A stretch of DNA of 64,000 bases from a bacterium (lineage in GTDB: Bacteria; UBP18; UBA7526): the NCBI GenBank assembly GCA_030615855.1, contig JAUWYL010000001.1, positions 139,008-203,007 of the forward strand, read 5' to 3'. Shown in pieces: positions 24,398 through 44,943 of the stretch. How positions within the stretch are numbered: position 1 is the first letter of the stretch; every line of letters begins with the position of its first letter. The notes beneath the pieces are model-generated. The model was not told the origin of the DNA. It saw only the letters and a list, made by a program, of their open reading frames with translations, and ran no database searches. Position numbers and translations under genes: made by a program.

Positions 24398-25164
24398 GAA
24401 TCGACATCTTAACCCTCTTTCCCAACATGGTAAAAGGGCCTCTGAAAGAGAGCATATTGAAGAGGGCCCAGGAAAAGGGTTTGGTGAAGATAAACGTTTT
24501 AGATATTCGCTCCTTTACTCATGATAGACATAGGACAGCAGACGATGCTCCCTATGGTGGGGGAGCGGGAATGGTTTTGAAGCCAGAGCCCATATTTGAG
24601 GCCATGGAATCCATTAAATCAAAAATCAAAAATCAAAAATCAAAAATCAAAGTGATACTGATGACTCCTCAGGGGAAGAGGTTTGATCAGGGGATGGCAA
24701 AGGGATTAGCAAGAGAGAAACATCTGGTCTTTATCTGCGGCCACTATGAGGGAATAGACGAGAGAATAAAGAGAATGGTAACGGATGAGATATCCATCGG
24801 CGATTATGTCCTCACTGGCGGGGAATTAGCCGCCTTAGTAGTCATCGATGCCTTGGTTCGTCTCATTCCCGGGGTCTTGGGGAAGGAAGAGTCTATAATC
24901 TGTGACTCTTTCTATTCTGGTCTCCTGGACTATCCCCACTATACTAGGCCAGGGAAGTATCGGGGAATGAGAGTTCCCAAGGTACTTTTGAGCGGGGATC
25001 ATAAAAGAATCGCCAGATGGAGGAGAAAGGAAGCCCTGAGAAGGACACTAGAGAGGAGGCCGGACCTGTTAAAAGAAATCAAATTATCTAATGAGGATAA
25101 GAGGTTACTAAGAGAGATTAAAGGTCTCCGACCCAGAGGGGTCTCTGACCTGGAGGGAGAATAG
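24394..25164 (+). CDS. trmD: tRNA (guanine37-N1)-methyltransferase
   Basis: RIDILTLFP...YGGGAGMV...GDYVLTGGE. It contains an in-frame AAATCAA heptamer repeat (24616-24651). Confidence 0.85.
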
Positions 25165-27075: not shown

Positions 27076-27117
27076 GGTTTACGGTTAACGGTGTACGGTG
27101 TACGGTAAACGGTCAAC
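27076..27117. repeat. 6 x 7-nt tandem repeat GGTNNAC
   Basis: ggtttac ggttaac ggtgtac ggtgtac ggtaaac ggtcaac. Confidence 0.85.
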
Positions 27118-27134: not shown

Positions 27135-27998
27135 ATGATGGGATTAGCCAAGGTCTATAGTAGTGCAGTACTGGGAATAGATGCCTATTCCGTAGAGGTG
27201 GAGGTAGATATTGCCAAAGGACTTCCCTCATTCAATACCGTGGGTCTCCCCGATGTGGCAGTGAAGGAGTCCAAAGACAGGGTGAAGGCAGCAATAAAGA
27301 ACTCAGACTTTAAATTCCCGACAAAGAGAATCACTGTCAACCTTGCTCCGGCGGATGTTAAGAAAGAAGGCTCTTTATTCGATCTACCCATTGCTTTGGG
27401 AATCTTAGCGGCCACTGGGCAGATTGAGAAGGCGGAATTCAAAAAATATGTTATCTTGGGAGAATTATCCCTGGATGGAGGGATACGCTCCATCCCTGGT
27501 GCCCTGCCCATTGCTCTGGCCGGTCAAAAAGAAGGGAGAGAGGGAATTATTCTTCCTCTGGATAATAGGGCAGAGGCAGCGGTAGTAAAGGGTCTAAATG
27601 TCTATCCTGTGGAGAACCTCTCCCAGACAGTAGATTTCTTAGCGGGAAAGACAGAGATTGAACCCTTCTCCTTAGATTTAGAAGGAGTCTTTGAGAGAGG
27701 GAGAGAATATAAGGTGGATTTTACAGATGTCAAGGGACAGGAACATGCCAAGCGGGCCCTGGAGGTGGCGGCAGCCGGAGGGCACAATGTAATCATGATC
27801 GGTCCTCCGGGCTCAGGGAAGACCATGCTTGCCCGGAGATTTCCTACCATTCTTCCTGATATGACTCTGGAAGAAGCCCTGGAGACAACAAAGATTCATT
27901 CCATCGCTGGCCTTGTGCCTCCTCAGACAGCACTCATCGCCACCCGCCCCTTCAGGAGCCCCCATCATACGGCATCAGATATTGCACTGTTACAATAG
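27135..27998 (+). pseudogene. comM: comM/yifB (Mg-chelatase-like competence ATPase), 5' portion truncated by element insertion
   Basis: N-terminus LAKVYSSAVLGIDAY.VEVEVD...GLPDVAVKESKDRV and the GPPGSGKT Walker A box are present. The ORF ends at ...RSPHHTASDIALLQ-stop, where intact ComM continues LIGGG...IPRPGE. Confidence 0.8.
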
Positions 27999-28002
27999 GG
28001 GG
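27994..28002. repeat. left junction copy of AATAGGGGG (candidate att core / flanking direct repeat)
   Basis: Identical 9-mer at 46477-46485. Splicing the flanks restores the comM reading frame D-I-A-L-I-G-G-G. Confidence 0.5.
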
Positions 28003-28055
28003 TAAGGTAGAAAAGGTAGAATATCGCATAGAAGCTACATTCTGATGGCGCTTAT
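27998..28055. repeat. island repeat unit copy 1 (GGGGTAAGGTAGAAAAGGTAGAATATCGCATAGAAGCTACATT), abutting the left junction
   Basis: Related copies at 34872-34966, 36246-36336 and 40932-41024. Confidence 0.6.
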
Positions 28056-28246
28056 TGTTACTATATGGTTAGTCAGCACAAAAACTTGACAAAATAGCAA
28101 AAGTGTATTATAATATAAATAACAAATAAAACTTGACAAAGTGTAAAAACCGTGATATGTTATAGGCCACGGGAGTAATTTCCAATAAAACAAGGATTGA
28201 AACTAGGAAAATCTACATTAATAATTATGGTAAGTAGAGGAAAAAC

Positions 28247-29104
28247 ATGAGGCGAGATATACTCTATTTTGGTGCCCCTGATAGTTTCACGCATATAGCT
28301 GCACTGAAAAGATTTGGTCCAAAGTATGACTATAAATCTTACTGGGCTATAGAAAAACTATTTGATGTTATTTTGGCAAATCCTACTAATATAATGGTAG
28401 TGCCTATTGAAAATAGTACTGGTGGAACAGTTCAACGTACTGCTGACGAATTAGTAAGTGATAAATTCGGAAATAGTGATTTGCGTATTCATGAACAACT
28501 GGAATCAAACATAGTTTTGAATTTAATAGGCCGCGAAAAGAATTTATCAAGTCTTAGAAAGATATACTCACATTCATATGCACTTAGATATTGTGAAGAC
28601 TGGTTAAAGGAGACTTTGCCAAACGCAGAAATGATTTTAGTAAATAGTACTTCGGAAGCGGCTATACGTGCAAAAAATAACCGAAAATCTGGTGCAATTA
28701 GTAGCACAAAAGCAGCAAAAACGTATAATTTGAAAATAATAAAAAGGAATATTAGCAAAAACAAAGCAGTTAATGTTACAAAGTTTTATGTTATAAAGAA
28801 AACAGGTAAGAATATTCTAAAACAAAGCAACAGGACTTCCGTTGCTTTTTCCTTGAAAGATAGAATTGGTGCCCTATGCGATGTCCTTGGGATATTGGCC
28901 AATAAAAAAATTAATTTAACTCGAATCATATCTTGTCTCAAATATGACAGTTCAAATAGGAATAAAAAATTAGATAAATATGCATTTCTTATAGAACTCG
29001 AAGGTAATATAGCCCAACAGAAAGTAAAAATAGCTCTTGATGAGTTACAAAGAGCTACCTTGGCTATGCATATTTTAGGTTCCTACCCCACAAGAAAACT
29101 TTAA
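28247..29104 (+). CDS. prephenate dehydratase-like protein (PDT domain + ACT domain), divergent
   Basis: YFGAPDSFTHIAALKRFG...VVPIENSTGGTV and IYSHSYALRYC are PDT-like. VAFSLKDRIGALCDVLGILANKKINLTRI is ACT-like. The TRF motif reads TKF and ESRP is not conserved. Very AT-rich. Confidence 0.55.
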   Translation: MRRDILYFGAPDSFTHIAALKRFGPKYDYKSYWAIEKLFDVILANPTNIMVVPIENSTGGTVQRTADELVSDKFGNSDLRIHEQLESNIVLNLIGREKNLSSLRKIYSHSYALRYCEDWLKETLPNAEMILVNSTSEAAIRAKNNRKSGAISSTKAAKTYNLKIIKRNISKNKAVNVTKFYVIKKTGKNILKQSNRTSVAFSLKDRIGALCDVLGILANKKINLTRIISCLKYDSSNRNKKLDKYAFLIELEGNIAQQKVKIALDELQRATLAMHILGSYPTRKL

Positions 29105-29325
29105 CTGAAAAACAATAATGTAGATGTGGTTACATCTTGACAGCTTTGGCAAGAATATAAATTTTCTTAAAGATATACCTCTCCAAAAATCAGAAGCCCC
29201 TACTCTTCAGAGGGTTCTTTTTATGCCAAAAATCTTTAATAATCCCCGCCAACTCAGGTGGGTTATTTTTTTGTTGAAATGAAATCTTTTTCAATTTACC
29301 GACGAAGAAGGCACAGAAAAAAGTC

Positions 29326-29354
29326 TTGACAAATCAAATATCGTAGTTTATACT
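29326..29354 (+). promoter_or_regulatory. sigma70-like promoter TTGACA-17-TATACT for the 204-aa orphan gene
   Basis: TTGACA at 29326-29331 and TATACT at 29349-29354, followed by SD AAGGAGG and ATG at 29376. Confidence 0.55.
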
Positions 29355-29375
29355 ATAATCAAAAGGAGGCAAAAG

Positions 29376-29990
29376 ATGGCTAAGTTGCCGTTTCCACAAT
29401 TTCTAAGTCGTTATGGAATCAAACTTCTCTTTACTGCTACTCCGGACGTGGTGCCGGGTACGATCATAGACAAGAGAAAGAAAGGGTTCTTCGGCATTGG
29501 AACCCTTAAACAAGTTCTGGGAGGAGGCCCGGCAAAGTGGGCGACCAAACTTCAACCGGGAAATTTGGTCTATGGCACAATAGAACGGGCTCTTAGTCTT
29601 AAAGGCAAAGCGAGCCTAAACGAGTTCGGTGTGGCAATCAGCGGTGGTCTCAGACGCGCACGGTCTGTTACTTTTGAAATCACGGGCGTCAAAGTTCGAA
29701 CATTCAAAACGCAGAGTATGATTACGATATCACCTGCACTCCACAAGCTTCGCAAGTCGAACAAGCAACTTTGGAAAATGGTAAATAATAATTGGATTGC
29801 GGATTATGTTTATTATGCCAGCGAAGCAACGGTGAAGTTCTTCGTTAACGGGGGAGTGAACCTCAAAGCGGATATCCAGAATCGTTTGAAAGTGTCGGGA
29901 GAGGCAGGGGTTCAATGGAAATCCAATCGCAGCTTCACGATAACAAATAACCAAGAAGTACCTTTCGGTTTTAGCGGCTGGAAAGTTTAA
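29376..29990 (+). CDS. hypothetical beta-rich protein, compositionally distinct (GC ~47%, CGN Arg codons)
   Basis: Own promoter and own terminator. Segments with alternating hydrophobic/polar residues (SVTFEITGVKVRTFK, ATVKFFVNGGVNLKAD) suggest amphipathic beta-hairpins. No family recognised. Confidence 0.4.
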   Translation: MAKLPFPQFLSRYGIKLLFTATPDVVPGTIIDKRKKGFFGIGTLKQVLGGGPAKWATKLQPGNLVYGTIERALSLKGKASLNEFGVAISGGLRRARSVTFEITGVKVRTFKTQSMITISPALHKLRKSNKQLWKMVNNNWIADYVYYASEATVKFFVNGGVNLKADIQNRLKVSGEAGVQWKSNRSFTITNNQEVPFGFSGWKV

Positions 29991-30100
29991 GGTTGGTTGC
30001 ACACCTTATCGTCATTCGTTTGTCGGTTACGGTTTTTGACGAACTACGTAACCCCTAAACGAAACGGGCGTCCTGACCGTATTGCGTATAACGAGCAATG

Positions 30101-30133
30101 CAGGAGCCTTTAATGGCTCCTCTTTTTTTGTTT
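30101..30133 (+). terminator. intrinsic terminator GGAGCC-TTTAAT-GGCTCC + T-run
   Basis: Perfect 6-bp stem followed by T9. Confidence 0.7.
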
Positions 30134-30237
30134 TAGAAGCAGGGCGAAGGAGAGATAAAAGGCTTGTTACACTTCCCTGAGTATGCTACAATGTAATTAA
30201 CATCACGAACGAAAATCCACCTGAGAACGGAGGACTA

Positions 30238-30918
30238 ATGACTCGAGTAATGAACAAGCAAAAAAAGATCGATGCATATAATTTTCCTTATACTTTTAAT
30301 CCTTATACTGGATGCCCCTATTGCTGTCACTACTGCTACACCATTAAATCTGCTCTCTGGAGTGCACGATTGAAAAACTGGGGAATAAAACCTAATATAG
30401 CAAAACCGAAACTTGGTGTAGTTCAGAAACTGCAGCGTGATTTACAGGACCTAAAGAATATACAAACCAGATATAAAGAAGTCCAGATAGGAAATTTCTT
30501 TGATCCCTATCCTCCAATAGAACCTAAATTAAAAATTACCAGACAATGTTTGGATGTATTTCGACAATATCCAGACTGGAAAGTCCATCTAGAAACCAAG
30601 TCTCCTCTCATCTTGAATGATATGGACATCATTAAGCAGATGCCGCGTTTTGAAGCGGAAATTACAATCACCACGCTCACACACGATAAGCAATTTGAGC
30701 CGAATGCTCCATCTACAAAAGAACGATTCAACTTAATCAAAGAGCTAAATAATAATGGAATATTTACAAGGGTTATGATTATGCCTATCCTGGAAGGATA
30801 TACCGATGTAAGGGCGATAATACAAAAAGCCACTAGATATGGAGCTAAATCATGGAAATCCAAAGAATTACATTACTTTACTATTAAAGATTTAAAAACT
30901 AGATATAATATTAAGTGA
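30238..30918 (+). CDS. small radical SAM protein, SplB/COG1533-like (DNA photolyase-like radical SAM family)
   Basis: N-terminal NPYTGCPYCCHYCY provides a CxxxCxxC cluster in the context typical of COG1533 proteins. At 226 aa it is short for the family. Confidence 0.5.
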   Translation: MTRVMNKQKKIDAYNFPYTFNPYTGCPYCCHYCYTIKSALWSARLKNWGIKPNIAKPKLGVVQKLQRDLQDLKNIQTRYKEVQIGNFFDPYPPIEPKLKITRQCLDVFRQYPDWKVHLETKSPLILNDMDIIKQMPRFEAEITITTLTHDKQFEPNAPSTKERFNLIKELNNNGIFTRVMIMPILEGYTDVRAIIQKATRYGAKSWKSKELHYFTIKDLKTRYNIK

Positions 30919-31017
30919 TAAGAGTGACGAAGAAAAAAAGCTAAAGGAAATTACACCTGAAATAAATAAAAAAAGCAGGAGCTATTTTGCCCCTGCTTTT
31001 TTATTGCCTGGATAAAT

Positions 31018-31326
31018 CTATTTGAAAATGATAGATACGATTTTAGAAAGCTTCTCTATATCTTTGGTTGATTTGTTCTTAAGAAGTTTGACTATTTCAT
31101 TTCTCGCTTGCTCTTTTTTATTCGTAAAAAGTTCACTGATATCAACCTTTAGACCTTTGGCTATTTTCTCAATATTCTTAAGAGAGGGATTACACTGCCC
31201 TCTTTCTATTAATCCAATATGAGTATAGTGTAAATTAGCCCTTTCCCCGAGTTCCTCCTGTGATAACTTTCGCTCCTTCCTTAAATCCCTTACCCTATTC
31301 CCGAAAATACGATATAGATTACTCAT
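31018..31326 (-). CDS. XRE-family HTH transcriptional regulator
   Basis: LSQEELGERANLHYTHIGLIERGQCNPSLKNIEKIAKGL. It is divergent from the lipoprotein operon. Confidence 0.7.
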   Translation of the reverse strand: MSNLYRIFGNRVRDLRKERKLSQEELGERANLHYTHIGLIERGQCNPSLKNIEKIAKGLKVDISELFTNKKEQARNEIVKLLKNKSTKDIEKLSKIVSIIFK

Positions 31327-31459
31327 TTTTCACCTTCCTTCAACATTATTTTAAAGGTAAAAGGCGAGAATAACCACAGAATAAATTATTTATTTTTCTT
31401 GATTTTAATGAAGATACATAGTATAATAAAAGTAATTGTATTATATGAGGAGGGACACA

Positions 31460-32998
31460 ATGAAAAAGACTATTCTTTTAATAACAGCGTTGATTCTAAT
31501 CTTCTCGTTATGCAGAACTGGCGACTCCTACGCAGTCAGCGATAAAAAATTGGCAAAACTTGCCAAGAAAGCAGGAGGGACAATTACTGAAGCACAAGAA
31601 TCTCTTACCCGATGGAAGACCGCTGACCTTATTGTACCTCCCGAAGCTGAGAAAATCCTGGAAAAAGCTCGTAAGGCCCATAAGGCGGGTAGCTACAAAG
31701 AGGCTCGTAAGCTGGCCGAAGAGTCTCTTAAAACTAGTAGCGATAAAGGAGCATGGAAACTTGCCCAGAAGACGAAAGAAATAATCACTCAGGCACAGGG
31801 CTACATTAACCTCTGGGAAAAGGAAGACCTTACTCCTCCACCCCAAGCCAAGGAAATTTTGAAGAAAGCCAAAGCAGCTTACCAGTCATACAATAATGAA
31901 GAGGCTTGCCAGCTCGCCAGCCAATCCCTTAAAATAACCACCGATGAAGGACTGAAAAAAGAGGCCCGGAAAGCAAGGGGGGCAATTACTGAAGCAGAAG
32001 CCAGTATCACCAGATGTGAATCTGCAGGATACACTGTTCCTCAAGCCAAAGAGATCCTGAGAAAAGCTCGCCAAGCAAATGAAGCGTGTAATTATAAAGA
32101 AGCACGTAAGTTAGCTAAAAACTCTCTCGAAGTAAGTAGCAAAAAAAAGATAGCCGGGCCCGCTGAAATTAAACCTAAAAAGGTAGAGAAAACAATTAAA
32201 AAGGTAGAAAAAAAGATCTCCAAGTGGGAATCTGAAATACAAATTCCTATTCCCCAAGCAAAAAAATTTATAGAAGAAGCTAACACGTTCTACCAGTCAG
32301 GTAATTATAAAGAGGCGCGCAATCTGGCCGGAAAAGCATATAATTCCTGGCAGCATGCGGTGATGGCAGAAAGGTATATCAAAGGAATGGAAGCCCACGC
32401 TACCAAATGGGAGTCTGCGGGCTACGATGTTCCCCTCACGAAGAAAATTCTTCGTGAGGCTCGCCAAGCACAAAAAGATGGAGAACAAGAAAAAGCCCAC
32501 CATTTAGGTGCAACAGCTGTCATTGTACTAAAACGAGAAGTAGCAGGAAGCTTTGAACCAAAAATAGAATTTCAGATTAATCCCCAGCATGGCTTGACCA
32601 AGTACAAAAAAATCGTTGTTTTAAAGATTGGTGATGCACCTCAAACCTTAGGTTCCGGGGAAATAGTGACAAACCTCGTATCCCATACTCTGGCAAAAAG
32701 AAAATATCAGATAGTGCAAAATAAAGAAGAGGCTGATGCCATCATCTCTGGATCCCTAACCCGGTATGAGGCCCAAGAATCTAGTTATCGCCTGCATTCA
32801 AAAGCCTTCATTTACAAATCCCGCGTAGAATCCTACTTCCTCGCCACCGTAGAGTTAACACTTAATATGAAAGATGCTAAAACGAACACTACTGTTTGGC
32901 AAGTTAAGGGTAAACAAGAGATGGCTTCTAAAGAAATAAAACCCGTAGCCCAATCAGTCATTAACGCCATCTTAGACCAGGTTCCGCAGAGTAAGTAA
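31460..32998 (+). CDS. lipoprotein with five tandem ~45-aa helical repeats and C-terminal LpoB/CsgG/TolB-N-like alpha/beta domain
   Basis: Signal peptide with lipobox FSLC. Repeats of the form ...TRWKTADLIVPPEAEKILEKARKAHKAGSYKEARKLAEESL. C-terminal YKKIVVLKIGDAPQ...IISGSLTRY. The longest ORF starts with TTG at 31436; SD plus ATG are at 31460. Confidence 0.5.
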   Translation: MKKTILLITALILIFSLCRTGDSYAVSDKKLAKLAKKAGGTITEAQESLTRWKTADLIVPPEAEKILEKARKAHKAGSYKEARKLAEESLKTSSDKGAWKLAQKTKEIITQAQGYINLWEKEDLTPPPQAKEILKKAKAAYQSYNNEEACQLASQSLKITTDEGLKKEARKARGAITEAEASITRCESAGYTVPQAKEILRKARQANEACNYKEARKLAKNSLEVSSKKKIAGPAEIKPKKVEKTIKKVEKKISKWESEIQIPIPQAKKFIEEANTFYQSGNYKEARNLAGKAYNSWQHAVMAERYIKGMEAHATKWESAGYDVPLTKKILREARQAQKDGEQEKAHHLGATAVIVLKREVAGSFEPKIEFQINPQHGLTKYKKIVVLKIGDAPQTLGSGEIVTNLVSHTLAKRKYQIVQNKEEADAIISGSLTRYEAQESSYRLHSKAFIYKSRVESYFLATVELTLNMKDAKTNTTVWQVKGKQEMASKEIKPVAQSVINAILDQVPQSK

Positions 32999-33014
32999 TA
33001 AGGAGGTAAGGGCA

Positions 33015-34034
33015 ATGAAAAAGGTTTCTTTTGTAATAGTAACGGGGCTAATGCTACTATTCTTGTTATATGGAACTAGCGAGTCCTGCACAGCTAACGC
33101 CCAGCAAGCATATCTAGAAATTACCGGAGCTCGGATGATGATTGCCAAGAAAGAATCTCAAGGGTATGCTGTTCCTGGAGCAAAGAAGATCCTGGAAAAA
33201 GCCCGACGGGCTTATCAAGACGGTAAATATAAAAAAACCCGAAAACTGGTAGAGAAAGCCCTTGACATACTACGCAAAGAAACAGCGCCTAAAAAATCTC
33301 TGGGCCGAAAGATAGCAGAAAAGACTATCACTGGCGATACTCACATAGGAATACTAACTCGAACACTTACTACCGGTTCTAAACATACTACGATAAAAGA
33401 CAAAATAGACGAGGTGAGAGTGAGGCATGAACCCTTAGTAGAAGTTCGCCAAGAAAAACCAGGGGTCAATCTGGCTGAATACCAAAAGATAGCTGTCTTA
33501 AAATTTAAGGACGCTCCTGGAACCCCGGGTTCGGGAAGCATAGTGGCTGATCTGGTAGCAAAAGAGTTAGCAGAAAGAAAGCATAATGTCGTTGGCCCAG
33601 AAGAGCTAGAGAGGGCAGCCAGGGAAGAGAAGGACAAAGAACCAGAAATAGGCAAAGAGGTCCCAGCCTTTACTATTAGCCGGTCCGATGTCGTTGTTTC
33701 GGGGAATTTACCGGATGAAATGGTTGATTCAATATTGGCCGAGATACAAGAAGACGCTAAGCGAAAAAAAGAACGGGTTGAGGACCTAAGCTACTCCCAG
33801 ATAAAGGAAGTGTTTGGCGCTGATGTTGTTATTACGGGAATTGTTTACAAGTATGCGTCTGCAGATACAGGAGGCGTAGTCAATGTAACGATTAAAATAA
33901 TTGACATTAAAGCTGACGACATTATCTGGGAGGGCAATGGAGTATACACTCCTTCGGAGAAAGATGCTTCTTCTATAACCCAGGCGGTTGTCAAGGCCAT
34001 TCTGGATGCAGTTTCACAGGAGGAGACTCAATAA
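33015..34034 (+). CDS. lipoprotein paralog (one helical repeat + LpoB/CsgG-like C-terminal domain)
   Basis: Signal peptide, ESQGYAVPGAKKILEKARRAYQDGKYKKTRKLVEKAL, and YQKIAVLKFKDAPGTPGSGSIVADLVA...ITGIVYKY. Confidence 0.5.
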   Translation: MKKVSFVIVTGLMLLFLLYGTSESCTANAQQAYLEITGARMMIAKKESQGYAVPGAKKILEKARRAYQDGKYKKTRKLVEKALDILRKETAPKKSLGRKIAEKTITGDTHIGILTRTLTTGSKHTTIKDKIDEVRVRHEPLVEVRQEKPGVNLAEYQKIAVLKFKDAPGTPGSGSIVADLVAKELAERKHNVVGPEELERAAREEKDKEPEIGKEVPAFTISRSDVVVSGNLPDEMVDSILAEIQEDAKRKKERVEDLSYSQIKEVFGADVVITGIVYKYASADTGGVVNVTIKIIDIKADDIIWEGNGVYTPSEKDASSITQAVVKAILDAVSQEETQ

Positions 34035-34146
34035 TAGAAACTCCCCTATAGTTTATCCCACCATCACGAACAAAGGTTCGGATAAAAAGAATTCAGGTCG
34101 CCTAAAAGAAAACGGCTAAATAAACTTTTGGAAGGAAGGAGGCAGT

Positions 34147-34863
34147 ATGAGAAAGATTCTTTTGTTAGTGGTTTGTTCGCTGGCTATCTTTTTAGTGGGA
34201 TGCCAAACTTTCGACCGCTGGTTAGCTCCTTCAAAACCAGTGGTGAAAATAGTAAAAATTACTAGTAATCCTAGTGGGGCTACAATTTATATAGACAAAA
34301 AGTACAACGGAACTATGAAATGTGGAGTTACCCCATTAACATTTTATCTAAAGTTCGTTGGGGAACTTCGTGGGGGAGAATTTACAAAACCTGGCGTTTG
34401 GCTCAAAGACCAAGGAGACCAAAAGAACTTTGGATGGCTCAAAAGAACACATCCTCAGGGGTATGAGTTTGAGGTTACGGTAAAAAAAATAAGATACAAA
34501 GAGGGGAAAATAAGAATAGACCTCGAACCACGCGACAAGACAGACTACCATATTGACCTAGAAGAAATAGAGACTATTTCTGTAGATGAGGTAGGTAAAC
34601 ATATAGGAGAGACGAAGATCGTAAGATGCCGGATAGTCTATACCGATAATGTAAGGGGGCGAGTATTTCTATTTACGGGCAAAGATTATAGGAAAGACTT
34701 TGCGGTAGAGATCTACTATCTGAGTAACTTTTCTTTCAACCCCGCTGCTTACTATCTGGGAAAGGAAATCGAGGTTCTGGGGCTTATACAAGGGGGCTGG
34801 CGCGAGGGCTTGCCCCCGTTTATCAGTGTTACCAGTCCCGACGAAATAAGAGTGATAGAGTAG
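34147..34863 (+). CDS. lipoprotein (lipobox LVGC), unknown function
   Basis: The MRKILLLVVCSLAIFLVGCQ signal is a lipoprotein signal. Confidence 0.45.
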   Translation: MRKILLLVVCSLAIFLVGCQTFDRWLAPSKPVVKIVKITSNPSGATIYIDKKYNGTMKCGVTPLTFYLKFVGELRGGEFTKPGVWLKDQGDQKNFGWLKRTHPQGYEFEVTVKKIRYKEGKIRIDLEPRDKTDYHIDLEEIETISVDEVGKHIGETKIVRCRIVYTDNVRGRVFLFTGKDYRKDFAVEIYYLSNFSFNPAAYYLGKEIEVLGLIQGGWREGLPPFISVTSPDEIRVIE

Positions 34864-34871
34864 AAAAGAAA

Positions 34872-34966
34872 AAGGGGGATTTTAGGAAAGAATAGAATAT
34901 CGGGTAGAAGTTATGTTATAATGTTCACCGCAGGAGTCTTAAAAGGCTCCTCTTTTTTTGTTTTAG
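34872..34966. repeat. island repeat unit copy 2 (includes terminator)
   Basis: aaagggggattttaggaaagaatagaatatcgggtagaagttatgttataatg...cgcaggagtcttaaaaggctcctcttttttt. Confidence 0.7.
34931..34962 (+). terminator. intrinsic terminator (AGGAGT-loop-GCTCCT + T-run)
   Basis: Hairpin plus T9. Identical module at 40989. Confidence 0.65.
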
Positions 34967-36245
34967 AAGAGGGGAAGAGATATCTAAAAACCGATTCAGA
35001 ATCAATCAAGGAGAAGCCAGGCCGTGCTCAATCTTTAAGTGCAAGTTTAATTCCTGCTCAACAATATCCATTTTGGAACCAATCCGAAAACCCCTCATGA
35101 ATTTATTCAGGAAATGTGGGTTGCCTCATTCCCAGAATAAAAATCTAAAGTTCATCAGCGGTTTTCTCTTCCAAAATGAATTGACCAGGAATTAAACCCC
35201 CTTCTCTTCAAGATGACCGAGCTGAGAATTAGAACCAAGATATCTTAGTTCATTCCAGTCCAGAGATGTAGGGATGCCTCATCTCTTCCCTTCCACTCAT
35301 AAGATAATACCCTTCTATCTTCCAGCGAGCCTGTTAGGGTCTTGGACCTAATTCTCACATTTTAAAGAGAAGGGTCATCATCTACCCCAGCGAGATAGAT
35401 GATGTTTCCACTCAAAGATTACTGGCTTCTCCTCCTGAATCTATTATGGATGACCCCCAAATTCTGCCAGGCAAGAAAGATTGTGTGGGTGGTGGTGGAC
35501 AGGCTCACTCCTCCTGGGGTGGTGGCAACCTTTCCCCTCGCATAGCATCGAAGCTGGGCGGGAAAGCCACGCCCTTCCCCTTTAGCGGGGAATTGGGCAG
35601 ATAATGCGCATTATCTGCCCTTGCTCACTATGGATGTTGGGTCGTCTTTTCGGGCTAAAACCTCAACATAAAATTTATTTTATGTTAACCTGCCACCACG
35701 CAAGAGGGATATGTCATTTGGCCCACCATCCCTTTCTGAGGGACGACCAATAAAGATGTTTCACCCTTAAGGTCGCCCTCATACTCCCACCCGTTATCCC
35801 ACCAACAGGTTCTCATACCATTAACCACTACAGGAGAGGGCATCAGGCTTCATAAAAGGAGCATCTATCCTTTGGGGAGGGGCTATCAGCAGGAAGCATA
35901 TATCTGGGGGAGCACCTATGGAATGGACAGAGAAGCTTCGAAGCAAAGCAGGAAGAAAGTAGCAGGCAGGAACGAACCGGGGGAGTCCGGGTAGATGTAT
36001 CCTCCCAGCGGCTCTTTGCTCCCGTAGCAGACTATTCCGCATGTCCGGAACAGGCAAGAAGAATCTCTGAATTTTATGGAAAAAGTCTGTAAGCCCCCGT
36101 CGCTATTGAACTTAGGGGAATTTCGGGTATTCCGTCTGAACGGAACAGCCTTTAAGAAGCAGGGATCTATCACCCCACACTTTAAAAATGCGATATAGGA
36201 CGGATACGGAGCTCCCAGGGGCATTCCAGGGAAGTATCTAATGGC
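34967..36245. other. ORF-free ~1.3 kb block, GC ~50%, rich in perfect palindromes (candidate cis-acting ori/oriT/att region or large ncRNA)
   Basis: No ORF longer than 102 aa on either strand. Loop-less palindromes GGGCAGATAATGCGCATTATCTGCCC (35595-35620) and AACATAAAATTTATTTTATGTT (35666-35687), plus a 9-bp-stem hairpin at 35376-35404. Bounded by repeat copies 2 and 3. Confidence 0.35.
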
Positions 36246-36336
36246 AAAAGGGTGAAAGGATAAAATATCGGGGGGAAGCTACATTATAATGCTTACCGCA
36301 GGAGTCATAAAGTGAATCCTGTCTTTTTGTTTTAAA
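36246..36336. repeat. island repeat unit copy 3 (diverged; includes terminator 36298-36334)
   Basis: aaagggtgaaaggataaaatatcggggggaagctacattataatg...cgcaggagtcataaagtgaatcctgtcttttt. Confidence 0.6.
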
Positions 36337-36424
36337 ACAGAGTAAAGGAGAGTAAAAAAATGCTTGCAATTTCCACCGAAATATGATAAGATTTTAAGTA
36401 GAAATTGAGGTAGAGAGAAAAATA

Positions 36425-37567
36425 ATGAAGAATGGCTACGTAAAGAAGGCAAGAACCAAAGCTCAGGTATGGATCAAGGAAAATCTTTCTGATTATTTAG
36501 ATGTAGTGTCCATCGGTCTACCAGAATATGATGACAGATACAATATTTGGAGAGTACCGTTAAATCTCGAAAATGGTAAGGATAGATTAGTCGGTGAAAT
36601 CAAATACGATAAATCTATTGAAAAAATGGTAGGTCGTACAAAAACCAAGATTATAACAGAAAGAATTGAAAAGTATCGTAACGAAAAGCCAAAAAAAGCG
36701 AAACAGAAAAGTGGATTATTCTATCCTGCTCCTATCCCAAACAAAGTTATACTAGGAGATGCAATTAAAGTTCTTGAGGATTTTCCACCCGATACAGCAC
36801 AACTTATGATTACATCCCCACCATATTTTAATGCCAAACCAGAATACTCTGAATATGTTGACTATCAAGAATATCTGGACTTTTTAAGGAAGGCTATTGC
36901 CAGAGTTCATAATGTCTTATCGGATGGGAGATTCTTGGTTATGAATGTCTCCCCCGTATTGATTAGGAGAACATCCCGTAAAACATCAAGTAAGCGCATA
37001 CCAATACCGTTTGATGTACATAAAGTAATAGAGAGTGTTGGTTTTGAGTTTATGGATGACATAATATGGGTTAAACCGGAAGGAGCTGGATGGAATTTGG
37101 GTAGAGGTAGAAGATTTAGAGCGGATCGGCAACCTTTGCAGTACAAGCCAGTTCCAGTAACGGAACATGTTTTGGTCTATCGGAAGAAAACTGATAAGCT
37201 GATTGACTGGAATATCCGAAGGCATTATGACCAAAAACTTGTAAAGAGATCAAAAATACGCGGAAAATATGAAGTTACAAATGTGTGGCACATTCATCCG
37301 GCATTTAGCAAACACCACCCAGCAGTATTCCCGAGAGAACTTGTTCGCAGGATAATAAGATACTATTCATTCAAGGATGATCTCGTTTTAGACCCATTTG
37401 CTGGTTCGGGTACAGTGGGTCATGTGGCTTATGAGATGGGCAGACGCTTTCTACTCATCGACAACGACCCCAAGTATTTCAAACTAATGAAGAGAGCGCT
37501 GAATGAGAGAATTAAAAATAAAATAAGAATCGATTACGAAATTCATGAAACATTTAAGGGGGTGTAA
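36425..37567 (+). CDS. DNA methyltransferase, beta-class, SPPY motif (probable N4-cytosine; N6-adenine not excluded)
   Basis: Motif IV ITSPPYFN precedes motif I DPFAGSGTVGHVA. S-P-P-Y/F is characteristic of m4C methyltransferases. Confidence 0.75.
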   Translation: MKNGYVKKARTKAQVWIKENLSDYLDVVSIGLPEYDDRYNIWRVPLNLENGKDRLVGEIKYDKSIEKMVGRTKTKIITERIEKYRNEKPKKAKQKSGLFYPAPIPNKVILGDAIKVLEDFPPDTAQLMITSPPYFNAKPEYSEYVDYQEYLDFLRKAIARVHNVLSDGRFLVMNVSPVLIRRTSRKTSSKRIPIPFDVHKVIESVGFEFMDDIIWVKPEGAGWNLGRGRRFRADRQPLQYKPVPVTEHVLVYRKKTDKLIDWNIRRHYDQKLVKRSKIRGKYEVTNVWHIHPAFSKHHPAVFPRELVRRIIRYYSFKDDLVLDPFAGSGTVGHVAYEMGRRFLLIDNDPKYFKLMKRALNERIKNKIRIDYEIHETFKGV

Positions 37568-38519
37568 GATAAATATTCAATTTGATGTAGATAAATATAG
37601 AGGGTGGCTGAGAAAGAACGTAACATTAAGTGATCCATTATCTCCTGAATCACTAAAGACTCTTGTTTATCATCTTCTTTTGGGTAAAAATTATCGTCTT
37701 CTGACGGAGAGAAACACCAAAGAAAAACTGTTTGCTACCTATATATGGTTGACAGATGTATACAACAAAGCAAAAGAAGAATACGGCAATGACTGGCGAG
37801 AAAAAATGCTTGGTGAACTTTTAGGTGAAGAAAGACCAAAAAAAGAGCAGAAGGATTTAACGTTTTGGTTGTTGGGACTTACACAAAAAGGAGCGGTAAA
37901 TCTTGGCATAGCCAAAAATGACTATCCTACGGTACTAAATGAGGTGATTGGATATTGTAGAAAACTATTCTCAGAGATGGGTGTTGATGGAAGGGAGGAT
38001 AATACTTGGCTCCTAATGATGGCTGGATCGGCCACTCTAAATATACGTGGTTCACAAAAAGCAAAGATAGGTAAAACCCTTGAGAAAGTTTTTTTGAGAG
38101 CTATGCTTACTATACTTGGTCTAGAAGAAAATGAAACCTTCTGGATGAATATTGGAAGAGACATAGAAGTTGAGAGAGAAGCTGATGCGGAAGTAAGAAC
38201 GAGGAGGGGGAGGATTAGAATCGAAGTTGGGTTGATTGCCCCAGGGAACCAAGAAGTAATAGAGGATAAAATCTCAAGAGTAGGAAGGAATGGAATTGTT
38301 ATATTTGATAAACTTGGTCCCCGTTCCAGAGTGTACGAAACAGCAGAACGCAATCATGTAAAATTAATCCAGATAAGAAACAATCAGCCTCTAATCGAGA
38401 TATATCGACATCTAAAACCATTAGTAGATATAGAACTAAGGAAGCCATCACAAACCGAAAAAGAACTCAAAAAATTAATAAACAAATTATCAGATGAAAC
38501 ACTACGACCAGCCACTTAA
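37545..38519 (+). CDS. hypothetical protein overlapping the MTase stop (candidate cognate restriction endonuclease or specificity partner)
   Basis: 23-nt overlap implies co-translation. Acidic cluster IGRDIEVEREADAEV...IRIEVGLI is a possible PD-(D/E)xK-like motif. No confident family assignment. Confidence 0.35.
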   Translation: MKHLRGCKINIQFDVDKYRGWLRKNVTLSDPLSPESLKTLVYHLLLGKNYRLLTERNTKEKLFATYIWLTDVYNKAKEEYGNDWREKMLGELLGEERPKKEQKDLTFWLLGLTQKGAVNLGIAKNDYPTVLNEVIGYCRKLFSEMGVDGREDNTWLLMMAGSATLNIRGSQKAKIGKTLEKVFLRAMLTILGLEENETFWMNIGRDIEVEREADAEVRTRRGRIRIEVGLIAPGNQEVIEDKISRVGRNGIVIFDKLGPRSRVYETAERNHVKLIQIRNNQPLIEIYRHLKPLVDIELRKPSQTEKELKKLINKLSDETLRPAT

Positions 38520-38541
38520 CGAAAAATTCTGTACGATTTGT

Positions 38542-38673
38542 ATGCTACCGCTTTTGATTATGCTGGTAGTTGTGGAACACCCTGATATTGGGCTTTTCAA
38601 GACTATCCTCTGGGTGGTCTTTTTGGAGGCGGTTTGTTATGCTGGGCTGAAGTGGGGGTATAGAAAAAACTAA
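38542..38673 (+). CDS. 43-aa hydrophobic peptide (below ORF-track threshold)
   Basis: ATG at 38542. Single TM segment. Stop overlaps the next start (TAATG). Confidence 0.25.
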   Translation: MLPLLIMLVVVEHPDIGLFKTILWVVFLEAVCYAGLKWGYRKN

Positions 38674-38852
38674 TGACCAAAACCTACCTTGAAAAAATAT
38701 TAGCCCACTTGCGGATATGCCCAAATTGTCGCAAGGGCGTTATGTGGTATGATGTTATAGGAAACATTGAGAAGACAATGTTCCTTTTAGGTCTACTTCT
38801 TGGCGCAATATTATTTGTGCTGTATTTGATTGGGGCTTTTCAGAATATTTAG
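38673..38852 (+). CDS. 59-aa zinc-ribbon plus TM peptide starting MTKTYLEKI
   Basis: CPNCRKG motif and a C-terminal TM. The N-terminus MTKTYLEKI parallels MTKTYFEEI of the ORF at 40636. Confidence 0.3.
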   Translation: MTKTYLEKILAHLRICPNCRKGVMWYDVIGNIEKTMFLLGLLLGAILFVLYLIGAFQNI

Positions 38853-38891
38853 GCCGTATAAGACATGTTAGGGTAAAAGAATAAATTAAAA

Positions 38892-40511
38892 ATGACAAAA
38901 CACAAGAAGAAACGTTCACAGAAAAAAAGAAAAAATCAATTTACCCCCATCAACAAACACAAAAGAGATGGTTCAAAGCTGGCCTCAAAATTGTCTAGTC
39001 TGAATCTTCAAATGATAGATTGGGAAAGAGATTTAATTCCTGAGCATCTTTGGATAGATTTATTAGCTGAGGAATATAAAGATGTTCTTTGGTTTAAAAT
39101 TTATAACGAATTTCTAGATAAGTTAGAAGAATGCTTGACAGAACAACCCAAAACTCCACTGTTTGGCTTTATTTCAGATTTTGCCATTCCTTCAGATGAA
39201 GAAAAAGAAAAATTTATAAATAACAATAAAGATTTAATCTTTAATGCTTTTTTTAAACCTATTGGTAAAATTTTATCTTTATATCCAGAAAGTCCAGCAA
39301 GTTGGTTGGTATTAAAAGAGTGGCTAGATAGCGAAAAGGTTGATTTTGAAGAAGAATTAAATAAACTTTCTCAATCTGTATCTCGCCTGATGAAAGCAAA
39401 AGATCTATATGCAGGGCACATACGCGCCTTGCCTTTAAATAGGCTATTTAAGCACAATAAAATCTTTTTAGCACAGGGAAAAATGGATGAATTAGCTGAG
39501 CTACTTCCAAAATATCCTGAAAAATGTACTAAAGAAGAAAAATATCATGTTCAATCATTTGCCAGAACAACAATAAATCAGAATTTTATGACAGAAGAAA
39601 GATATAAGGATATGGTTTGGTCAAAATATTTTTGGCGACACAATTATGATTTAGTACCATGCGCTCCCCTTAATGAATCTCTTGAAGATGGCGACATTGA
39701 AATGCATGATGAAAAAGTAAAAGAAATACAAAAAAAGACCTGGGAAAATTCTATCAAGTTAATGAAATATCTTGATAAAATTGCAATGCAATATAAATAC
39801 GATTTATACAATCCTATGATAGATCAGATAAAACTAGGACTATTCTCAAGGATTGTTAGATTATATATTTCATTTGTATCAAATCCATTTTTATGGACTA
39901 GGGATCTTTCCTGCATAATGCTAAGATGCTTAGGTGAAACGACTATTATATTTCACTATTTAATACTTCATGGAACAAATGAAGATTTTAAAAACTTCCA
40001 TGACTATGCGGTTGGGAAGGAAAAATTATTAATGTTGCACATCCAGGACACCTACCAAGAGTTTCTTTCTTTAGAAGGTAAAGACACAGAAAAGATTGCC
40101 AAAGATATTGGTGGTGATTTTCACGCAGAAATAACAGCTGTAGAATTAAAGGGCTGGATAAAAAAAGATATCCGCACAATGGCTGATAACACAGGATTAC
40201 AGAAAATTTATAAAATCATAGTTGATCCGTCTAATGCAGATATTCATGGATCATGGTCCAGTATTCGTAAGTCAAATTTAGTAATTTGCCGTCAGATTCT
40301 ACATAGATTCCATAGAATACCGAAATTTTATGAGCCTCCTGTTTATTTAGGAGCTTTGGTAGCAGCAGATTCAATTTATTTAACGGCAAAAGAAATAGCC
40401 GTTCAAAAGTTAGGATTTCCTGAACCTGATGAAACTTTATCAGAAATATCAGAGGTGAAAAAGGCAATTCAAGAAAGATCGAAAGAAATAATTAAGAAAT
40501 TTAAACCCTAA
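38892..40511 (+). CDS. hypothetical 539-aa protein, AT-rich, basic N-terminus
   Basis: No recognisable motif. It follows the MTase pair. Confidence 0.4.
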   Translation: MTKHKKKRSQKKRKNQFTPINKHKRDGSKLASKLSSLNLQMIDWERDLIPEHLWIDLLAEEYKDVLWFKIYNEFLDKLEECLTEQPKTPLFGFISDFAIPSDEEKEKFINNNKDLIFNAFFKPIGKILSLYPESPASWLVLKEWLDSEKVDFEEELNKLSQSVSRLMKAKDLYAGHIRALPLNRLFKHNKIFLAQGKMDELAELLPKYPEKCTKEEKYHVQSFARTTINQNFMTEERYKDMVWSKYFWRHNYDLVPCAPLNESLEDGDIEMHDEKVKEIQKKTWENSIKLMKYLDKIAMQYKYDLYNPMIDQIKLGLFSRIVRLYISFVSNPFLWTRDLSCIMLRCLGETTIIFHYLILHGTNEDFKNFHDYAVGKEKLLMLHIQDTYQEFLSLEGKDTEKIAKDIGGDFHAEITAVELKGWIKKDIRTMADNTGLQKIYKIIVDPSNADIHGSWSSIRKSNLVICRQILHRFHRIPKFYEPPVYLGALVAADSIYLTAKEIAVQKLGFPEPDETLSEISEVKKAIQERSKEIIKKFKP

Positions 40512-40635
40512 CAAGGCATTGCAGCGGACAAAAAACGCAGTTTTTTGCCGCTGAATTTCAATGTTATGTAGAGCCTTCAGAAGAAGCAGAAAATCTTGGT
40601 TTTCGTCGTGCTTGGAGATGGCACGGGGAGAAATA

Positions 40636-40953
40636 ATGACTAAAACCTACTTTGAAGAAATCTCAACTCAAACTATGGAGCATATCAAGAAGGCCATATT
40701 AGAATACCGACAAGGCAAATATAGCGACCCTATGGTACTGCCTAACGCTATTGCCGCAATTCTGGAGACAGAGATAGAGGATCCGGAATATCAGAAATTT
40801 GCGGTAGAAAATTATAGTCAAATTGTCGGAATTGTCATTAATAAAAATCCAAAGTATTTAGCCATTAAGAGTAATATTGAAAGAGATTTTTACTTTCAGG
40901 TCGATGACGAAATAGTAGAGGCTTATCAAAAAGGAGTAAGGTTAAAAGGATAG
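40636..40953 (+). CDS. hypothetical small protein (start at SD-ATG MTKTYFEE; longest ORF from 40561)
   Basis: SD GGGGAG precedes the ATG at 40636. The C-terminus reads into repeat copy 4. Confidence 0.35.
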   Translation: MTKTYFEEISTQTMEHIKKAILEYRQGKYSDPMVLPNAIAAILETEIEDPEYQKFAVENYSQIVGIVINKNPKYLAIKSNIERDFYFQVDDEIVEAYQKGVRLKG

Positions 40954-41024
40954 AATATCGGGTAGAAGTTATGTTATAGCGCTTCTCGCAGGAGTCTTAA
41001 AAGGCTCCTCTTTTTTTGTTTTGG
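40932..41024. repeat. island repeat unit copy 4, closest to the attL-adjacent copy (includes terminator 40989-41022)
   Basis: aaaaaggagtaaggttaaaaggatagaatatcgggtagaagttatgttatagcg...cgcaggagtcttaaaaggctcctcttttttt. Confidence 0.7.
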
Positions 41025-41049
41025 AGCAAAATAAAGAAGGATAAAAGAG

Positions 41050-41172
41050 GCGATAAAAAATATTTTTCGGGAGCAAACCAAAAAAGGACTTGACTTTTTC
41101 TATAAAATATGGTATATTATAAGTAGTAGTGGTTGAGGGGTTAACTTTAATTTTCAGGAGGGAATAGACGGG
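41050..41172 (+). repeat. duplicated promoter/leader block, copy A (promoter TTGACT 41090-41095, TATATT 41113-41118)
   Basis: ~85% identical to 41489-41612 and includes a diverged copy of the first codons of the MerR-like gene. Confidence 0.7.
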
Positions 41173-41222
41173 GGGCAACTTCTTTAAAATCTGATGGGGC
41201 TGGATGAGATGGGAGATGAGAA

Positions 41223-41438
41223 ATGAAGAATCATGATCCTTGCCTGCGTTCTCTCTTCCAGTGCTTCCTTGAAAAACTGGGGAATATGGAAAAGGAAGAT
41301 TTCTTTGCCGTTGTTCGGGAACATTACCCCGGCGAGGAGGCCTTTGAAGAATTCATTAGCTACTTCAAAAGCGAAGAGGGAATTGACAGGTTTACAACCA
41401 TTCTGTCCGAAGAAGCAAGAAAAATAAGAATTGACTGA
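41223..41438 (+). CDS. small acidic protein (71 aa), likely born from partial duplication
   Basis: Driven by promoter copy A. Confidence 0.3.
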   Translation: MKNHDPCLRSLFQCFLEKLGNMEKEDFFAVVREHYPGEEAFEEFISYFKSEEGIDRFTTILSEEARKIRID

Positions 41439-41488
41439 AAAGAAAGTAGGGATGGGGAGGAAACCGGCCAAGAAGAGGAGAAGGGGGG

Positions 41489-41612
41489 CAATAAAAAATA
41501 TTTTTCGGGAGCAAACCAAAAAAGTACTTGACTTTTTCAGTAAGATATGGTATAATATAAAGTAAGGTGGTAGAAAGACTAACTTTAATCTTTCAGGAGG
41601 GAACAGATGGAG
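41489..41612 (+). promoter_or_regulatory. duplicated promoter/leader block, copy B (TTGACT 41528-41533, TATAAT 41551-41556) driving the MerR-like gene
   Basis: Consensus -35/-10 with 17-nt spacer. SD CAGGAGGGAACAG followed by ATG at 41607. Confidence 0.6.
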
Positions 41613-42401
41613 AATAACTTCTTTAAGATCGGTGAAGCTGTCCGTATCCTTAAAAAGGAGTATGAAAACTTGACAGCGAGCATGCTGAGATACTGGGACC
41701 AGAAAGGAGTCGTCGAGGCTTCAGAGAAGACAGAAGGGGGGCAGAGAGTATATAGAGTCGAGGATCTGGACTTAATCAGATATGCCAGGGAATTGTCAAT
41801 ATCCGGTTGTTCGCTCGGTATAATCAGAAAGGCAATCAAGGAAACTAAACTCGTTGCGAAAACTCCCAAATACTCTGCCGAATCATTCAGAAAGGCCCTT
41901 ATCAAACTAATCCGGGCTCTGCGAGCATTTAATAAACTCGAAAGACGACTAGAGGTACACAATCAGCAATCTCTTGGGGAACGATTTGAACCGATATACG
42001 ACAGAGAGGCACTGGTAAAATTATCAGGGGATCCGGCCTCTGAAAAGATTATAGATAAAGCAGAGAAATATAACTTAATATTTCCTGGAAAATCGGGTAA
42101 AAAGAAGAGATACAGCCGGGCTGACGAAGTGATCTTAAGATATTTGTTACTGATGGGAATATCTGAAATCAAAAAATTCAAAAACCTTTATGATATTATT
42201 AAGTACTTAGAAGAAGAGGTGGGCGTTACTGTAACAGTTAAGCCAGGAAAGAACTTTGCATATTTTCTGCTCCCTGGAGTTCGTTCACAATCCTTTACAG
42301 AGCGCATTGCGACACCTCAAGATCGTCTATTTCAGTTGCTGCACGATCATTACGATTATATTTACGGAGCTGTGAAGATGCTGGCGGAGCCCCATGTCTA
42401 A
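41607..42401 (+). CDS. MerR-family HTH regulator with long C-terminal domain (possible excision/regulatory factor of the element)
   Basis: N-terminal FKIGEAVRIL...SMLRYWDQKGVV...GQRVYRVEDLDLIRYAREL is a MerR-type HTH. Confidence 0.55.
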   Translation: MENNFFKIGEAVRILKKEYENLTASMLRYWDQKGVVEASEKTEGGQRVYRVEDLDLIRYARELSISGCSLGIIRKAIKETKLVAKTPKYSAESFRKALIKLIRALRAFNKLERRLEVHNQQSLGERFEPIYDREALVKLSGDPASEKIIDKAEKYNLIFPGKSGKKKRYSRADEVILRYLLLMGISEIKKFKNLYDIIKYLEEEVGVTVTVKPGKNFAYFLLPGVRSQSFTERIATPQDRLFQLLHDHYDYIYGAVKMLAEPHV

Positions 42402-42647
42402 AATAAGGCAACAAAAATACCGTGATTATGGGAGTAAATTTTTTCCCAATAACTCAATATCAATACTTCAGCCACTTTCACTATTTTTCTTAAGAAAAGT
42501 GGAAGGCCCGGTGAATGATGTCTGACATCCGGATTACCTCCGTTAAGTGCGTACCGACTCCTGATGCCAAGGAGCGTTTCAAAAAAATCGTCGTGATGCT
42601 GTTTTCGAAAGCAAAATATCAACAGGGCCGGAAGGAGGTGAGGAAAA

Positions 42648-42857
42648 ATGAAGGAAAAAGAACTAACTGATAAGGAGATAAGGAAGATACTTGAATATAA
42701 CCGAAGATTACTTAAAGAAATGCGTAAGGAGTTTTTAAGAAATCAAGAGGAGTATAGAGAAATAGCGATTCTGTTTAGTGAAGAAACGGAAATGATAGAA
42801 GCAAAGAAAAAAACTATAGAATCAATCAAAAAACTTATAAGTATGCTTCCCAAATAG
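42648..42857 (+). CDS. small coiled-coil protein (69 aa)
   Basis: KE-rich heptad-like sequence. Weak support. Confidence 0.25.
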   Translation: MKEKELTDKEIRKILEYNRRLLKEMRKEFLRNQEEYREIAILFSEETEMIEAKKKTIESIKKLISMLPK

Positions 42858-42993
42858 ATAAAAAAATAGAGAGGAAACTAGAGAAACCGGGAAAGAAGGA
42901 GGAAAAAAGACACCGTCCGAAAGTTTAAGGACCATTAAAAAACAGGGAATCAAAACTGAAACTCCGATTCCTAACCTGTCAAGGAGGCGAAAT

Positions 42994-44879: not shown

Positions 44880-44943
44880 AAAGTCCTTGTCTTTTTCGTA
44901 GAGAGGGTTTATAATTAATAAAACTAGAAGTCAGGAGGTCAAA

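Follow-up and report, generated by a model that had tools for sequence, protein, structure and literature searches.

Results

The Island in comM and Its Repeat Copies

The 64-kb window analyzed here (64,000 nucleotides, positions 139,008–203,007 of contig JAUWYL010000001.1, assembly GCA_030615855.1) comes from an uncultivated bacterium of the lineage UBP18, with IspG relatives at 78–88% identity and Nitrospirota metagenome-assembled genomes (MAGs) at ~64%. An island of 18.5 kb (~27984–46471 in window numbering, which is used throughout) interrupts comM within the AAA+ domain, leaving an N-terminal part at 27135–27998 and a C-terminal part at 46511–47164. The GC content of the island is 0.34–0.44, compared with ~0.45 for its surroundings. 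The island is a large-serine-recombinase element that splits comM. Inside it, and at one host locus, lie copies of a short repeat, which the initial annotation described as four units that partition the element into modules. The nature of this repeat is the subject of the present analysis. The host copy is referred to as c0, and the four copies of the initial annotation as c1–c4.

A 21-nt core, TAGAATATCGGGTAGAAGYTA, was found at 28017, 34893, 36261, and 40951 with at most 3 mismatches, against a chance expectation of 0.01, so that the four positions of the initial annotation are reproduced. The nhmmer profiles concur. When the copies are aligned, a composite unit emerges, consisting of a purine-rich A module of ~50 nt and a C/D module of ~73 nt that contains an intrinsic terminator and a purine-rich tail. 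There are five A modules, starting at 21560, 27998, 34874, 36242, and 40932 (nhmmer E<=3e-11), and five C/D modules, starting at 21668, 30084, 34914, 36282, and 40972 (E<=2e-17). Neither profile gave a further significant match within the 64 kb, and a scan of the window with a covariance model (CM) of C/D, filters off, returned the identical five copies. Together these make six loci, five of them inside the island and one in host DNA, and every copy is on the + strand.

The modular make-up varies among the loci. Copies c2 (34874–34986) and c4 (40932–41044) contain full A and C/D modules. The former begins 10 nt past the stop codon of a PEGA-domain lipoprotein gene (34147–34863), and the A module of the latter includes the stop codon (40951–40953) of the small open reading frame (ORF) upstream, a gene that was called in contig locus L012. 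Copy c3 (36242–36355) combines A with a diverged C/D module at the 3′ end of an ORF-free structured block. Copy c1 (27998–28050; nhmmer E=7e-13) consists of A only, without a terminator. A C/D module alone is present at 30084–30157 (nhmmer E=4.5e-19; CM 80.2 bits), 3′ of an ORF of 204 amino acids; this copy, which was missed previously, consists of the terminator AGGAGCCTTTAATGGCTCCT followed by a T-run and the purine tail. The host copy c0 has the composition A+B+C/D. Its A module (21560–21612; nhmmer E=6e-12) begins directly after the SNase1 stop codon and is 60–68% identical to the island copies. It is separated from the C/D module (21668–21738; nhmmer E=2e-17; CM 75.1 bits) by a 55-nt insert B (21613–21667), which contains heptamer-like GTTCGGR repeats and an A-rich stretch. 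The degenerate member noted earlier outside the island is thus real, and it is more complete than had been described, because the A core is present as well.

The sequences of c2 and c4 share perfect blocks of 29 and 36 nt around an unrelated 8-mer, a mosaic that looks like gene-conversion patches. Three Logan contigs from run SRR14872660 reproduce the window from 27954 to 41016 at 100% identity, and therefore the arrangement is not peculiar to one assembly; these contigs break within sequence identical between c2 and c4. One of them, L011, begins at 27954, 30 nt before the crossover in comM. Such a start would be expected from a branch of the k=31 graph at the attachment site, suggesting that the sample also contains comM junctions that are empty or of another kind. 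A further branch, at the overlap of contigs L011 and L007 (30040–30067), is situated just 5′ of the terminator-only copy.

The C/D Module Resembles an Intrinsic Terminator

The 24-mer CGCAGGAGTCTTAAAAGGCTCCTC of the terminator occurs exactly at 34929 and 40987, and with 3 mismatches at 21683. It had been proposed that copies 2, 3, and 4 are all fused to the same terminator. This holds for c2 and c4, whereas the terminator of c3 has diverged (~72% identity), and the T-run, given before as T9, actually reads T7-G-T4. A terminator scan located a GC hairpin followed by a T-run at 30102–30121, 34932–34951, and 40990–41009. The hairpin of c3 is seen by folding, and c0 and the island-free relative L006 have one as well. 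In c3, the 30084 copy, c0, and L006, the stem is kept through one-sided changes, including U-G to C-G or U-A.

All copies are co-oriented with the + strand ORFs upstream and lie at, or no more than 10 nt from, their stop codons, or else at the 3′ end of a non-coding block. From its sequence, C/D has all features of a canonical intrinsic terminator in the right place and orientation. Strong sigma-70 promoters follow the units at 28086 (TTGACA-17-TATAAT, 12 of 12 consensus positions), 30164, 36364, 41090, and 41528. The proposed partition into modules survives insofar as the units are situated at the 3′ ends of transcription units. However, the first module of the initial annotation is further split by unrelated terminators and promoters at 29245, 29326, 30969, and 31399, and therefore the units mark some operon ends but not all.

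A second, unrelated terminator-repeat family of the host (ATTTTTAAATGCCCGCCTCTTCGGCGGGTTTTTGC...AGCAAAAAACATAAGAATTTGGAAA) is present at 8806–8872 and 22675–22761, and in degenerate form at 7106–7131. Its copies are 93–96% identical, and in the one at 22675 the loop of the hairpin contains a palindromic insert of 20 nt. Reuse of terminator sequence thus occurs elsewhere in this genome.

Conservation of the A Module

Identities among the five A modules are star-like, at 60–77%. The consensus of the module reads ..TAAGGTTGAAAGGATAGAATATCGGGTAGAAGYTAYRTTATAATG, and the heptamer AATATCG is invariant in all five copies. The A module shows position-specific conservation, and the heptamer may be a constrained motif; the disruption of the motif at the host locus in the island-free relatives speaks against strong constraint. 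Three specific roles for A were considered and set aside. Structured RNA was dropped as unproven, the fold z-scores of the units being unremarkable (−0.2 to −1.9) and compensatory base pairs absent. A promoter role was rejected by inspection because the candidate elements (an extended −10, TGTTATAAT, in c2; a sigma-28-like CCGATAT on the minus strand; an ECF-type element) are not conserved across copies, and because a start at this position would yield a hairpin RNA of only ~30 nt. A small ORF was rejected since there is no consistent frame or start codon. The A module shows a marginal likeness to the −10/5′-untranslated region (5′-UTR) part of the promoter family described below (z=1.9, reached by 21 of 500 shuffles).

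A Repeat and a Promoter Family Shared with the Host SNase Locus

Copy c0 follows the SNase1 gene (20111–21559), which is located 6.4 kb from the insertion site of the island. In two island-free relatives, L006 (GCA_030619985.1) and L008, the SNase1 spacer keeps a degenerate orthologous copy. The left half of A (AAGGTTGAAAGAGTAGA) is retained there, but the right half is degenerate, with a 32-nt palindromic insert interrupting it; the terminator at this place, GGAGTCTTAGAAGACTCC, is related and scores 43–46 bits with the covariance model. The inserts in these relatives differ from the B insert found at that place in the window. The earlier view that host DNA, too, has members of the family is thereby confirmed and now extends to both relatives, so the family predates the island in this strain or is independent of it.

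The units are accompanied by a second shared family, consisting of a promoter with its 5′-UTR, with the pattern CTTGC/A..-17-TAAGAT/TATAAT-..TAAGTAG..TTGAGG. One member (36360–36427, + strand; nhmmer E=8e-12) directly follows c3 and drives the methyltransferase operon, with the sequence TTGCAA-17-TAAGAT-TTTAAGTAGAAATTGAGG. Two more members on the + strand, both of repeat family D6 and found by profile match, lie after c4 (41086–41165) and before the MerR-like gene (41524–41603). In host DNA the SNase1 promoter belongs to the family (20052–20113, + strand; nhmmer E=4e-12), and in the relatives the SNase2 promoter (L006 2944–3010) is homologous to it. Neither the window nor the fetched loci gave the profile any further match.

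The host intergenic spacers differ strongly, by indels, between strains that are 92–96% identical. Many of these spacers are filled with heptamer-like short tandem repeats (GGTTTAC/GGTGTAC..., AAAATCA..., GTTCGGR...), which were seen at 18482–18552, 21613–21650, 24622–24655, 27076–27115, 51510–51556, and 63712–63765.

Attachment Sites and the Position of c1

The ends of the island were defined by comparison with L006, which carries an intact comM of 513 amino acids at 8574–10115 and whose flanks are 92–96% identical to those of the window. Overlapping blastn alignments of L006 with the window stop at 27983 and resume at 46466, and the hexamer GATATT is common to attB, attL, and attR. The crossovers are therefore placed at 27979–27984 (attL, the true left end, inside comM) and at 46467–46472 (attR, the right end). 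In the reconstructed attP the arms end in CCCCCTATT and AATAGGGGG. Copy 1 had been described as abutting the left junction. It is indeed near it, but it starts ~15–20 bp inside the island, at the outer edge of the P′ arm, and only its first bases overlap AATAGGGGG. The proposed match between copy 4 and the part of copy 1 nearest the junction amounts to GTAAGG(T) and is no better than in shuffled controls, 116 of 300 shuffles reaching its score.

The gene for the large serine recombinase (44944–46548, + strand; Pfam domains Resolvase, Recombinase, and Zn_ribbon_recom) crosses attR, and in the integrated state its last 26 codons derive from comM DNA. In the excised circle the ORF would read through attP and c1 to a TGA at 28041–28043. 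From this reading frame we infer that c1 would lie shortly downstream of attP and mark where the recombinase operon ends. The closest recombinase among ~5.8 billion proteins is 55% identical and is encoded beside the C-terminal part of comM in an Elusimicrobia MAG. The 12-kb contig of that MAG contains no such repeat.

Discussion

The Repeat as a Probable Transcription-unit Boundary Element

We favor, with a probability of roughly 55%, the view that the units are lineage-specific 3′-UTR-terminator boundary repeats shared by the island and one host locus, with C/D serving as terminators. Each unit would join a purine-rich 3′-UTR module of ~50 nt (A) to a Rho-independent terminator with a purine-rich tail, placed shortly after the final gene of a transcription unit and co-oriented with it. 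As far as the sequence allows a judgement, the C/D hairpin and U-tract would stop transcription and shield each unit from the strong sigma-70 promoter that follows. The likeness of the copies would reflect common descent of boundary DNA, which may have been duplicated or exchanged by recombination between the island units and the SNase locus. Such a course of events would have parallels in terminator-bearing dispersed repeats of the SPRITE and BOX type and in the promoter-gene-terminator morons of prophages.

If so, the apparent module boundaries of the island would be ordinary ends of transcription units, made from reused terminator and promoter sequence. They are not recombination sites, and the island should therefore not be taken for the product of tandem accretion. 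The repeat itself is fairly ordinary and lacks the features of a recombination site. The island, low in GC and apparently foreign, nevertheless shares its promoter and its 3′-UTR-terminator families with a single host locus, which would be a modest case of a mobile element and its host exchanging regulatory sequence in an uncultivated lineage.

Relation to Known Repeats and Modular Elements

The pneumococcal SPRITE repeat is present in 30 copies per 2.2 Mb near the 3′ ends of coding sequences (CDS), has nothing but AAAA/TTTT as its "terminal repeats", shows no target-site duplication that could be detected, and is lineage-specific, and the pneumococcal BOX repeat has a modular A/B/C structure (PMC3049150). 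The units described here resemble these repeats in several respects. They are shorter than 200 bp, they contain a terminator-like stem-loop with a U-rich tract, and they lie near CDS 3′ ends in the same orientation. Their ends have only an A-run and a T-run, without a target-site duplication, and their modules can be absent or separated by an insert, as in BOX. A terminator-like fold, proximity to CDS 3′ ends, and modular composition are therefore all found. The differences are that there is no sequence relationship, that the lineage is a different, uncultivated one, and that only six loci are known, five of them in one 18.5-kb island, a count that covers the island and ~55 kb of host-lineage DNA. 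Compared with SPRITE, which has an 18-bp duplex as its stem, the units have a normal terminator stem of 7–8 bp, and a conserved non-palindromic A module precedes it. The SPRITE/BOX class is the closest described kind, within which the units would form a lineage-specific boundary family.

Three other systems offer partial likenesses. Morons of phages and prophages are autonomous promoter-gene-terminator units, and the cargo of the island is likewise arranged in units that are complete in themselves, a strong sigma-70 promoter and a factor-independent terminator belonging to each. In contrast to morons, the promoters and terminators of the island units are homologous to one another and to those of one host locus, and the island is a recombinase element without phage genes. 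Composite islands of the SCCmec type are made by serine recombinases, and their direct repeats include the att core, which originates from the target gene. The comM island is also a serine-recombinase island in which internal direct repeats appear to delimit modules, but its units lack an att core from the target gene. In integrons an attC repeat is found at the 3′ end of each gene cassette, which is where the present repeat is located in each unit. Here, however, there is no tyrosine integrase and no imperfect palindrome of the attC type, and the cassettes have their own promoters.

Weighing the Alternatives

Several observations weigh against a dispersed family of boundary repeats. In ~55 kb of non-redundant host-lineage DNA (the window flanks together with L009 and L010), both the repeat and the promoter family occur at the SNase locus only. 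Four of the five A modules lie within the island, which makes up 29% of the window (binomial P=0.027), a distribution more easily reconciled with an element tied to the island than with a genome-wide repeat. Terminal inverted repeats (TIRs) are not consistent between copies; there is only complementarity of the A-run and T-run, seen in c2 (17 nt, 76%) and not in c3. Flanking target-site duplications are not visible, and no insertion polymorphism was found. L006 and L008 both carry the orthologous host copy, so no empty site exists. Mobility is thus not demonstrated. A classical MITE (miniature inverted-repeat transposable element) was rejected on the same three grounds, and of the MITE-like repeat suggested at first, what stands is a terminator-bearing repeat, the description nearest to the evidence. 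A degenerate core, AAARRNTRRAATATCGNNNRRARGYTAYNTT, gave only chance hits in collections of genome, metagenome, and viral contigs that do not include the source genome: one in a gammaproteobacterial coding sequence among the genome contigs, one in fish-like DNA among the metagenome contigs, and none among the viral contigs. The terminator pattern likewise had no match in viral contigs, and c4 had none in phages and plasmids by blastn in distant mode. A further difficulty is posed by the A module, in which the invariant 7-nt run is longer than column permutation gives (P=0.016). This hints at selection on a specific motif, which pure "junk repeat" models do not explain. Module A could then be a functional cis-element under selection, either an RNA motif of the 3′-UTR (a protein-binding, stability, or processing signal) or the DNA site of a regulator. 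Such an element would co-regulate the transcription units of the island and the host SNase locus, it would be compatible with the terminator role of C/D, and the repeat would exist because of this function rather than through shared junk ancestry. Besides the invariant run, the star-like identities are in its favor, as they persist despite the fast turnover of host intergenic DNA. The A module also has TRRAA direct repeats 9 and 12 nt apart and visible Shine-Dalgarno-like or GGA-rich runs. In a small hairpin that precedes the terminator, c2 and c4 disagree at 6 of the 8 positions of the right arm, which is still complementary to AGAAG in both. The SNase locus carries the shared promoter family as well, and the island encodes a small KH-like protein of 69 amino acids (42648–42857; weak Pfam hit). 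On the other hand, RNAalifold finds no compensatory base-pair changes outside the terminator, and the fold z-scores given above are unremarkable. Rfam returned no match, for the window at gathering thresholds and for the units at E up to 5. At the host locus the right half of A is not strongly conserved, as its disruption in two relatives shows, and five copies are too few for statistics. On balance a selected function of A seems rather unlikely, but should the motif turn out to have a function, it would represent a new cis-element.

Two explanations in terms of recombination fare less well. The units and the shared promoter family could provide homologous flanks for the swapping of expression cassettes (promoter, cargo, A, and terminator) by homologous recombination, with the island, the chromosome, and other elements as partners; a role of this kind has been proposed for the "boundary sequences" of mosaic phages. 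The layout of a family promoter followed by A recurs at SNase1 (20052...21560), in the unit from the methyltransferase to the small ORF (36360...40932), and in the regulatory/recombinase unit, which in the excised circle would end at c1 (41086/41524...27998). The c2/c4 mosaic would agree with this explanation, and direct repeats bracket the non-coding block, as a Campbell-type insertion would produce. Yet no variant with swapped modules was found, and identical stretches of 29–36 nt are short substrates for RecA-type recombination. Moreover, the DUF5677 gene, which at 92.8% identity is the only cargo gene with close relatives elsewhere, moved without these flanks, and its homology stops at the gene borders. 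We therefore consider cassette swapping improbable. Still less probable is the more specific proposal that the A motif, AATATCG with the TRRAA repeats, is a recognized recombination or RNA-binding site in exchangeable cassettes, with the island and the chromosomal nuclease locus drawing on a common pool. Such a pool, if it existed, would amount to a modular system resembling integrons but lacking their integrase. The least probable explanation is that the units are sites of the serine recombinase (pseudo-att or sub-sites) or scars of accretion at comM, as in SCC composite islands. It would account for the position of c1 next to attL, for the GTAAGG(T) present in both c4 and the junction-proximal part of c1, and for the circular form, which four units would split into four segments. 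When the 65-bp reconstructed attP was aligned locally with each internal unit on both strands, however, the scores were 9–12 against shuffled means of 8.9–10.3, and 50–167 of 300 shuffles reached the observed score, well within the shuffled distribution. The GATATT core and the CCCCCTATT/AATAGGGGG dyad are not in the units. The intact comM locus of L006 matches by blastn at the two island flanks only, with no comM or attB fragment inside, and Pfam identifies a single recombinase in the island and no additional one at the internal boundaries. The element of the 55%-identical recombinase, likewise in comM, lacks the repeat, and a member of the family exists in the island-free relatives. As the units have no attP likeness beyond chance and the island has neither comM remnants nor a second recombinase, both tandem accretion at one att site and recombinase-recognized sub-sites, which the initial annotation had put forward, are unsupported. 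Tested directly, the units are not att sites, nor are they scars of tandem accretion.

Other Features of the Island

The cargo of the island comprises a prephenate dehydratase, a radical SAM protein, lipoproteins, a restriction-modification pair of the CfrBI type, a DUF5677 protein, and a MerR-like regulator. The CfrBI-type pair is complete (36425–38519; N6_N4 methyltransferase and RE_CfrBI endonuclease) and directly downstream of c3. The DUF5677 gene (38867–40514) has 92.8% identical copies at L004 9976–11623 and L005 3552–5199, in an unrelated context where the relative adjoins an Ea47-like gene and a YoeB/Phd toxin-antitoxin pair. The homology spans from 25 bp before the start codon to 3 bp past the stop codon, and these bounds indicate a recent gene-sized transfer.

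The ORF-free block between c2 and c3 (34990–36240) has a GC content that exceeds that of the rest of the island. Nested long inverted repeats are present at 35045–35197 and 35199–35374, and a third pair of inverted arms at 35509–35709 encloses a perfect 26-nt palindrome (35595–35620). The RNA fold z-scores are −7.7 for 35030–35390 and −3.7 for 35480–35740, and the block has no match in Rfam. Possible identities are a large non-coding RNA, an origin-like element, and a set of palindromic MITE-like inserts.

Just inside the left end of the island, a CRISPR-like repeat, GCCACGGGAGTAATTTCCAATAAAACAAGGATTGAAAC, is located on the + strand at 28167–28203, 3′ of two consensus sigma-70 promoters and 5′ of the prephenate dehydratase gene. 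There is no CRISPR array and there are no cas genes in the window. The repeat matches the Rfam family CRISPR-DR7 over its full length with 32.9 bits (gathering score 37; E=0.0046), and it could be a solitary repeat unit or a decoy resembling an RNA anti-CRISPR.

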